Of a DNA stretch of 36,900 bases, positions 12,361 to 12,453 are shown one piece after another. The stretch comes from Escherichia phage SaltyDalty. The position numbers and the translations under genes were made by a program. The stretch is from sequence record PP925825.1; one strand, written 5' to 3'. Every line of letters begins with the position of its first letter. The stretch's first letter is position 1. The notes under the pieces were generated by a model. The model saw only the letters and a program-made list of their open reading frames with translations. It ran no database searches and was not told the DNA's origin.

Positions 12361-12453
12361 TATTTATCCTTTAGAAGGGATATTCAGTGCTTTATCCCTT
12401 AGAGGGGATAACCATTATCAAGCCCACCAGCAGGTGAGCTTTGTAATGGCCAC

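Follow-up and report, generated by a model that had tools for sequence, protein, structure and literature searches.

What are two nearly identical palindromes doing directly in front of a small late gene of a lambdoid phage? The question arises at positions 12361-12412 of Escherichia phage SaltyDalty (PP925825.1), a stretch of 36,900 nucleotides that we analyzed at its full length and refer to as the window. A first-pass annotation, made from the letters alone, had noticed two tandem imperfect palindromes about 10 bp apart, immediately upstream of the minus-strand open reading frame (ORF) 12166-12360, and had proposed that they are binding sites for a dimeric regulator or tandem RNA hairpins acting on translation initiation. 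We found that both palindromes match the operator consensus of the antitoxin HipB exactly and that they recur, at the spacing seen in the Escherichia coli hipBA promoter, in many phages with unrelated flanking genes. With a probability of roughly 0.6, we regard them as an orphan pair of HipB-type operators, equivalent to the O1-O2 or O3-O4 unit of hipBA, in the late region of a lambdoid phage.

The phage is of the lambdoid, HK97/mEp390-like type, and its late operon is transcribed on the minus strand (late sense below). The palindrome beside the gene start, P2, occupies positions 12365-12382 (TATCCTTTAGAAGGGATA on the plus strand), and the one nearer to an adjoining hairpin, P1, positions 12393-12410 (TATCCCTTAGAGGGGATA on the plus strand, TATCCCCTCTAAGGGATA in late sense). 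Each is an exact TATCC-N8-GGATA, and between the two 18-bp cores lies a gap of exactly 10 bp (12383-12392), of which the length is conserved and the sequence is not; the arrangement first described is confirmed in this form. The sites belong to a 20-nt direct repeat, TTTATCCYTTAGARGGGATA, at 12363-12382 and 12391-12410, with 28 nt from start to start and 90% identity. Read in late sense, the pair is TTATCCCCTCTAAGGGATAA-AGCACTGA-ATATCCCTTCTAAAGGATAA, followed by 3 nt and an ATG. This start codon of ORF 12166-12360 stands at 12360-12358, 4 nt past the P2 core, and the Shine-Dalgarno sequence of the gene, AAGGA (12371-12367), lies inside P2, in the late-sense 3' half AAGGATA. A search of the rest of the 36.9-kb window, one of the checks that the first-pass annotation had proposed, gave no further TATCC-N8-GGATA outside 12365-12410, even at one mismatch. 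The two perfect matches compare with 0.58 matches expected in the window at up to one mismatch, and a chance origin of the pair is excluded, mainly by its recurrence among numerous phage contigs whose flanks are unrelated.

In the hipBA promoter, HipB, a protein of the Cro/Xre fold (PMC3920265), binds four operators cooperatively, and TATCC-N8-GGATA is their consensus (PMC3376134, PMC3920265; operator work by Black 1994 and Schumacher 2009/2015, as cited in PMC3376134, PMC3920265, and PMC7758455), and the gaps between these operators are given as "10, 21 ..." (PMC4150777). From the K-12 genome we read the promoter, in the sense of hipB, as TTATCCGCGATCGCGGATAT, 8 nt, TTATCCCGTAGAGCGGATAA, 19 nt, TTATCCTCACTAAAGGATAA (O2), 8 nt, ATATCCCCTTAAGCGGATAA, and 20 nt to the hipB ATG, with the 18-bp cores spaced by 10, 21, and 10 bp. 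The 10-bp gap and 28-bp period of the phage pair are the same as those of O1-O2 and O3-O4. The likeness reaches beyond the half-sites, to the 10-bp gap and to positions within the N8 (CC..AAGC as in O1). P1 shares the extended half-site TATCCCC with O1 and with the crystallized operator oligonucleotide ACTATCCCCTTAAGGGGATAG, P2 is identical to O2 at 16 of 20 positions, and the consensus of the first site among the phage copies, TTATCCCCnnAAGCGGATAA, is nearly the sequence of O1. A profile built with nhmmer from the phage copies alone and run on the 3.5-kb K-12 hipBA locus matched both K-12 pairs over their full length (E = 6.4e-8 for O2-O1 and 8.6e-6 for O4-O3). The homology of the phage copies to hipBA ends at the operators, with none detected farther out. 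The proposal of binding sites for a dimeric regulator is supported by these matches and gains a specific candidate, HipB.

Conservation among phages follows the same positions. A stretch of ~93 bp (12363-12455) is common to many phages with different flanking genes, including Stx2 phage 1717, ECP1, and mEp213. In an alignment of 39 distinct phage copies, made for the analysis of information content and covariation, the mean information per column was 1.76 bits at TATCC/GGATA (ten positions per site), 0.83 bits in the N8, 0.62 bits in the gap, and 0.30 bits in the flank. When exact tandem TATCC-N8-GGATA sites were counted across the IMG/VR database for gaps of 0-40 bp, the 10-bp gap accounted for at least 120 loci and the 9-bp gap for 57, followed by 24 bp (26 loci) and 33 bp (9 loci); any other length gave at most 4. 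A tandem of equal information content, the Shewanella-type operator GTGTA-N6-TACAC, was counted in phages as a background control only and gave 65 loci summed over 27 gap lengths. The features under selection are precisely the HipB consensus positions and the gap length. As a side observation, the IMG/VR tandems show secondary gap peaks at 24 and 33 bp, and a few loci carry three or four sites in a row.

The gap-10 loci represent 103 distinct contexts and more than 30 flank clusters without homology outside the pair, and the phages that share the pair differ in their immunity and structural modules. Where the surroundings are readable, the pair usually stands between Rz/Rz1 and the terminase genes, whether the phage is one of Escherichia or of Klebsiella; the exception is one cluster with the pair between Q and the holin. 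The next element varies and may be one of several small proteins, the small terminase subunit, an HNH gene, or a terminator. Roughly half of the contexts have a gene start 3-12 nt beyond the pair, and GGATA or GGGGATA, the 3' half, is then often the ribosome-binding site. In Klebsiella phage ST846-OXA48phi9.1 (contig L238, 3542-3587), the first site falls within the 3' end of an Rz-like gene, a strong terminator follows directly, and there is no hairpin module. The search in relatives suggested by the first-pass annotation thus found the pair kept in many phage contigs with unrelated flanks, and the tie that had been drawn to this particular late gene dissolved, since many unrelated genes, or a terminator, can come after this module.

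The pair is also widespread in bacterial chromosomes. Of 5426 complete E. coli genomes, 2548 contain an Stx-type hairpin with the pair; the match spans at least 80% of the query in 2026 of them, and there are up to five places per genome. In DLP12-like prophages, examples lie between the Rz gene and a ybcV homologue. Strains with a pair-bearing prophage include O157:H7 strains of the Sakai/EDL933 type and strain AH01 (NZ_CP055251.1, near 1,428,870). The commonest E. coli form is TATACCCTACACGGGATA-N10-TATCCCTTTTAAAGGATA, which has TATAC in P1. The pair is absent from the K-12 prophages DLP12 and Qin, from phage lambda, and from phage 933W, the backgrounds in which the system has been studied, which may explain why it went unnoticed.

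Which protein would occupy the sites? The immunity region of the phage (19100-19180), between a cro-like gene on the minus strand and the repressor gene on the plus strand (19190-19918), carries repeats of the TGCTAT..ATAGCA type, TTGCTATC...GATAGCAA and TGCTATTGG...AGCAATAG, presumably the phage's own operators, and TATCC-N8-GGATA is not present there at up to one mismatch. We rejected the phage's own repressor and Cro as partners because these repeats differ in type from the pair and the rest of the window contains no copy of the motif. HipB and HipA were not found by tblastn in the window, and among the fetched phage loci they appeared only as a hipBA remnant on one contig; since neither is encoded beside it, the pair is an orphan and not part of a hipBA locus. 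A HipB-directed search of IMG/VR returned seven loci only, all on short contigs (7.1-11.8 kb) in which hipB mostly reaches a contig end or stops within ~20 nt of it, and these look like host fragments. With the phage's immunity proteins excluded and no HipB encoded by the phages, host HipB acting in trans would be the most economical partner, and we consider binding of the pair by HipB, or by a very close homologue, to be likely. In a hipBA remnant on contig L157 (7000-7350), all four operators are intact and the start codon of hipB is joined to the final 67 codons of hipA, which looks like a natural hipBA deletion retaining the operator array.

The sites could instead be operators for another dimeric helix-turn-helix protein, of phage or host origin and of the Xre/Cro type, that shares the specificity of HipB and has no link to a toxin-antitoxin system. 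HipB itself has the Cro/Xre fold (PMC3920265) and lambdoid phages encode many such proteins; phage repressors typically use tandem operators, and the conserved place between Rz and the terminase genes suggests a phage-specific role. Nevertheless, the CI/Cro operators of this phage differ and its immunity region lacks the motif, and no single phage-encoded partner co-varies with a pair that is found alongside different immunity and structural modules. The match to hipBA, moreover, includes the 10-bp gap and the N8 positions and not the half-sites alone. We regard a protein of this kind as a rather unlikely occupant.

A second alternative keeps HipB as the binder and makes the pair a promoter-operator of the downstream accessory gene, with a weak overlapping promoter and expression from the prophage only upon degradation of HipB. 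The layouts are similar, hipBA having the pair, 20 nt, and the hipB ATG where the phage has the pair, 4 nt, and an ATG; the O2-O1 gap of hipBA contains TATAAT, as read from the sequence, and the genes that follow the phage pair are small accessory genes. A sigma-70 scan, however, gave no promoter-like site in 11400-13200, unlike hipBA, and promoter-like sites were not enriched at the 103 phage contexts (0.136 per context vs. 0.132 in random segments of the same loci). The gap sequence is not conserved and contains CTGAAT rather than TATAAT in the window, and the pair often precedes a terminator or overlaps a coding region. Since the pair comes without a sigma-70 promoter, it is unlikely to act as a classical operator that represses a promoter overlapping it, and the promoter-operator account appears improbable. 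One cluster of 10 contigs (L136, ~3266-3400) has LexA-box-like sequences and a TATAAT within 40 nt after the pair, and there the pair could adjoin a promoter.

The third alternative takes up the other half of the first-pass proposal and has the sites act as RNA: two hairpins, or a nested pairing, would form in the late mRNA, mask the Shine-Dalgarno sequence, and adjust translation of the gene that follows. The AAGGA in the 3' arm of P2 is 6 nt from the ATG, the contexts in which a gene start closely follows the pair would fit such a role, and the ribosome-binding site is paired in the minimum-free-energy fold. Covariation, however, is lacking: under the two-hairpin model, none of the 12 pairs had changed on both sides among the 39 distinct copies, with more such changes in the shuffled controls, and nonconsensus cells break the pairing, in 29 of the 39 copies at one pair and in 15-17 at two others. 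The nested fold predicted by ViennaRNA was no better for covariation than slid or shuffled controls, and in the predicted structure the two hairpins do not form separately. The gain in stability is marginal for the 68-nt segment with the two palindromes (z = -1.98; 6 of 200 shuffles fold as well), and the strong score of a 116-nt segment (z = -4.6) arises because it includes the neighboring 38-nt hairpin. Some copies have no second arm in P1, many pairs precede a terminator and no gene, and an RNA role would leave the exact fit to a DNA-operator consensus and its spacing unexplained. In the absence of covariation, we conclude that the complementarity of the palindromes reflects their two conserved half-sites, which is what a symmetric protein-binding site would show. 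An Rfam scan of the pair region gave nothing at the gathering threshold, the one sub-threshold match being Phe_leader on the opposite strand (20.6 bits vs. 55), and no tRNAs; a terminator scan did not list the palindromes, which have no T run after them. An RNA role in translation initiation appears highly improbable, even though one arm does contain the ribosome-binding site.

Other kinds of elements were compared with the pair and rejected. The Fur box GATAATGGTTATC fits at 11 of 19 positions only, look-alikes of sigma-28, sigma-32, and sigma-54 promoters, judged by eye, have the wrong spacing, and the DnaA box and the integration host factor site differ in spacing or bases. Likenesses to the core of lacO1 (TGAGCGGATAA in some copies) and to the Arc operator of P22 involve some copies or the nonconserved gap only and were judged coincidental. 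A mini-ORF across P1 (ATG GTT ATC CCC ... TAA) does not stay in frame in the most frequent variant, and no codon pattern emerges from the substitutions. A relay of alternative RNA pairings, from the 3' arm of the adjacent hairpin through P1 and P2 to the Shine-Dalgarno sequence, was dismissed, as pair and hairpin occur independently of each other and the palindromes show no covariation.

The last alternative, a nonfunctional relic or recombination linker that originated as a captured piece of the hipBA promoter and spread by homologous exchange at module junctions, is very improbable: the pair does sit at a known mosaic junction with freely swapped genes on both sides, and is dispensable, being missing from lambda, 933W, the DLP12 and Qin prophages of K-12, and ~60% of hairpin-bearing loci, but TATCC/GGATA and a gap of 9-10 bp have been kept while the N8, gap, and flanks diverged heavily, more than 30 flank families (including one with the pair in a coding region) have no detectable homology outside the pair, and the homology to hipBA stops at the operators.

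If the sites are HipB-type operators, what would they do on a phage? The consequence that we favor, though only tentatively and as an inference, is that the actual function of the pair is that of a DNA decoy or anchor holding HipA-HipB. The suggestion draws on three published observations: operator DNA shields HipB from the protease Lon, with a half-life of >200 min (PMC3376134); in the HipA/HipB-DNA complex, binding of HipB promotes a dimerization of HipA that occludes its active sites (PMC7758455); and sites away from hipBA are bound by HipB too (PMC3920263). Upon infection or in a lysogen, host HipB dimers would bind the two sites cooperatively, and HipA would probably join them, flanking each as at hipBA. 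Assembly of HipA with HipB is said to need two adjacent operators. As the phage genome is amplified, hundreds of O1-O2-like units could capture HipB2-HipA2 complexes, and the captured HipB would be both titrated and protected from Lon, with HipA parked in an operator-bound, dimerized, and inactive form. Lytic growth would then proceed without the host toxin arresting translation, and a HipA-driven dormancy that aborts phage production would be blocked. A lysogen would carry one to five additional operator pairs on its chromosome, which might shift the autoregulation of hipBA and hence the frequency of persisters. Local effects, namely on transcription through the site, as a roadblock or insulator at the lysis-packaging junction, or on the adjacent accessory gene, are jointly about as likely as the decoy, and the two kinds of effect could coexist.

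Several points weigh against reading the pair as HipB operators with such a function. HipB is a candidate identified from sequence, and its presence, with HipA, in the phage's host is assumed. The promoter that accompanies the operators in hipBA has no counterpart at the phage pair, as described above. Many copies have one mismatch in one of the sites, such as the TATAC in P1 of the commonest E. coli form, and some lack the left half of P1 entirely. The pair is strongly tied to the lysis-packaging junction, frequently with a start codon 3-12 nt beyond it; a decoy could work from any place, and both the position and the nearness to start codons hint at a local role. A tight protein roadblock within the late operon would also seem costly to the phage. 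Finally, HipBA is, to our knowledge, not an established anti-phage system.

The first-pass annotation had overlooked that the pair is a separable, widely shared module and that it adjoins a 38-nt hairpin. The hairpin, CCATTACAAAGCTCACC-TGCT-GGTGGGCTTGATAATGG, with 17-nt arms and a 4-nt loop, lies on the minus strand at 12412-12449 and starts 2 nt past the stop codon of ORF 12454-12651. A scan of IMG/VR with its 3' arm found at least 120 loci, and among the matches listed, the hairpin always starts at or a few bases from the stop codon of the preceding gene, these genes being unrelated. The pair comes directly after the hairpin in 68 of the 122 loci listed and follows 150-930 nt further on in ~15 more, with a gene cassette between. 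Among 82 distinct tails of hairpin loci, picked irrespective of the motif, 31 carry the pair (at most one mismatch per site and a period of 27-28 nt) and ~60% do not. As each occurs with or without the other, the hairpin and the operator pair are separate modules. The hairpin stem covaries, with U.G changing to U-A or C-G, and in DLP12-like prophages (L310, 2490-2545) the stem is wholly replaced; the flanks CCATTACAAA ... TTGATAATGG stay fixed while the stem changes. The hairpin matches no Rfam family and has no T run. It is a genuine structured element.

A Chi octamer, GCTGGTGG, spans the hairpin loop and 3' arm on the minus strand (12424-12431) and is present in 16 of the 44 distinct hairpin variants. 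The window contains 18 Chi octamers, 17 of them on the late-sense strand, vs. 1.4 expected; those on the minus strand include sites at 8984, 9167, 9485, 10581, 11331, 12424, 14139, and 14264. Six lie between 8984 and 12431, within ~4 kb of the presumed cos site between the HNH gene (8563-8916) and TerS (7728-8213), and are oriented, as we take it, for RecBCD entering from that end.

The gene order around the pair is that of a lambdoid late region. The antiterminator gene Q (14952-15767; Pfam Antiterm) has just downstream of it an Rfam STnc100 match on the minus strand (14534-14737, 59.3 bits), at the place expected for the PR' leader and terminator region. There follow the holins, a GH108 endolysin (13097-13639), the reading frames of Rz (12831-13100) and Rz1 (12680-12910), two small genes, a 183-aa gene, and a glycosyltransferase-like gene; a terminator-like stem-loop on the minus strand (12674-12691), just past the Rz1 frame, marks the end of the lysis cassette. 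The two small genes, both on the minus strand, enclose the pair: upstream is a 65-aa gene (12454-12651; PHROG 9518, E = 4e-36) and directly downstream the 64-aa gene (12166-12360; PHROG 10509, E = 1.4e-26), neither with a Pfam family. A search of genome contigs with the 64-aa protein gave only an irrelevant Rhodococcus locus. In close relatives (L015, L022, L034, L098) the slot of the 64-aa gene is taken by a terminator, GGCCTCGCACCCGCGGGGTTTTTT, after the pair and then AATGCGCATCGCACG; in the window, AATGCGCATCGCACG stands after ORF 12166-12360 instead (region compared, 12157-12050). Because the relatives hold a terminator joined directly to the sequence downstream of the ORF, the 64-aa gene looks like an exchangeable cassette that replaced it. 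The HNH gene is followed by the terminase and head genes; positions 1-8213 hold head and terminase genes and 30285-36900 tail genes, all on the minus strand, and the window appears to be the greater part of a complete, circularly permuted phage genome without host flank. The relatives of this phage are E. coli and Klebsiella phages and prophages, and one 39.8-kb IMG/VR contig (L019) is identical to the window across the ~170 nt compared around the pair.

A search of the literature on HipB operators, the HipB regulon, chromatin immunoprecipitation, decoys, prophages, and lambdoid phages, and with the raw sequence, found no description of HipB operators on phages. The type of site is already known; what is new is that phages carry it as a conserved orphan pair. 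HipBA served as the founding model for persistence in bacteria and is regarded as regulating itself in a closed loop at one chromosomal promoter; the pair suggests a previously undescribed link between lambdoid phages and this host system. If the sites bind HipB, there would be a large pool of HipB sites that varies between strains with their prophage content, raising the questions of phage control of a host toxin-antitoxin system by DNA alone, of the effect of prophages on persisters, and of the role of HipBA in infection. If the decoy is true as well, it would be the first anti-toxin-antitoxin mechanism acting through noncoding DNA, and prophage content would be tied to antibiotic persistence in roughly half of E. 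coli strains. Should HipB not be the binder, the pair would still be a very widespread conserved noncoding element at the lysis-packaging junction that needs an explanation.

Among known systems, hairpins that sequester a ribosome-binding site, such as translational operators and RNA thermometers, likewise place the Shine-Dalgarno sequence in a self-complementary segment by the start codon; the phage pair differs in its lack of covariation, its marginal stability, and its presence also where no gene follows. The OR and OL operators of lambda are 17 bp long (TATCACCGC, with TATC...GATA ends). They resemble the phage pair as imperfect palindromes of 17-18 bp in tandem, with short spacers and dimeric helix-turn-helix binders of the fold of HipB, but have another half-site and length, lie at the immunity region, and overlap promoters. 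Binding sites of antitoxins away from their own operons are known for HipB at relA, eutH, and fadH (Lin 2013) and for MqsA at rpoS and csgD (summarized in PMC3920263). These share with the phage pair a palindrome away from the cognate toxin-antitoxin locus, implying cross-regulation in trans, and differ from it in being single chromosomal sites at host promoters, whereas the phage carries a full tandem unit that is mobile, conserved, and amplified with replication. The closest likeness in form is to the K-12 operators O1-O4 themselves, with the same 18-bp TATCC-N8-GGATA, the TATCCCC half-site, pairs with a 10-bp gap, and a position immediately upstream of a start codon; unlike hipBA, the phage has one pair rather than two, no overlapping -10/-35 elements, and no hipB or hipA beside it, and its pair, known from sequence comparison, lies inside a Q-antiterminated late operon. 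Phages counter toxin-antitoxin systems with T4 Dmd, T7 Gp4.5, the Lon inhibitor PinA of T4, and the pseudo-ToxI RNA of phage TE. We know of no DNA site with such a role, and our literature search found no DNA-decoy counter to a toxin-antitoxin system. If the decoy is true, the phage pair would resemble the known counters in keeping a toxin neutralized during infection, partly by sparing the antitoxin from Lon; where those are proteins or RNAs, the pair would be a DNA site that titrates the complex and serves as its scaffold.

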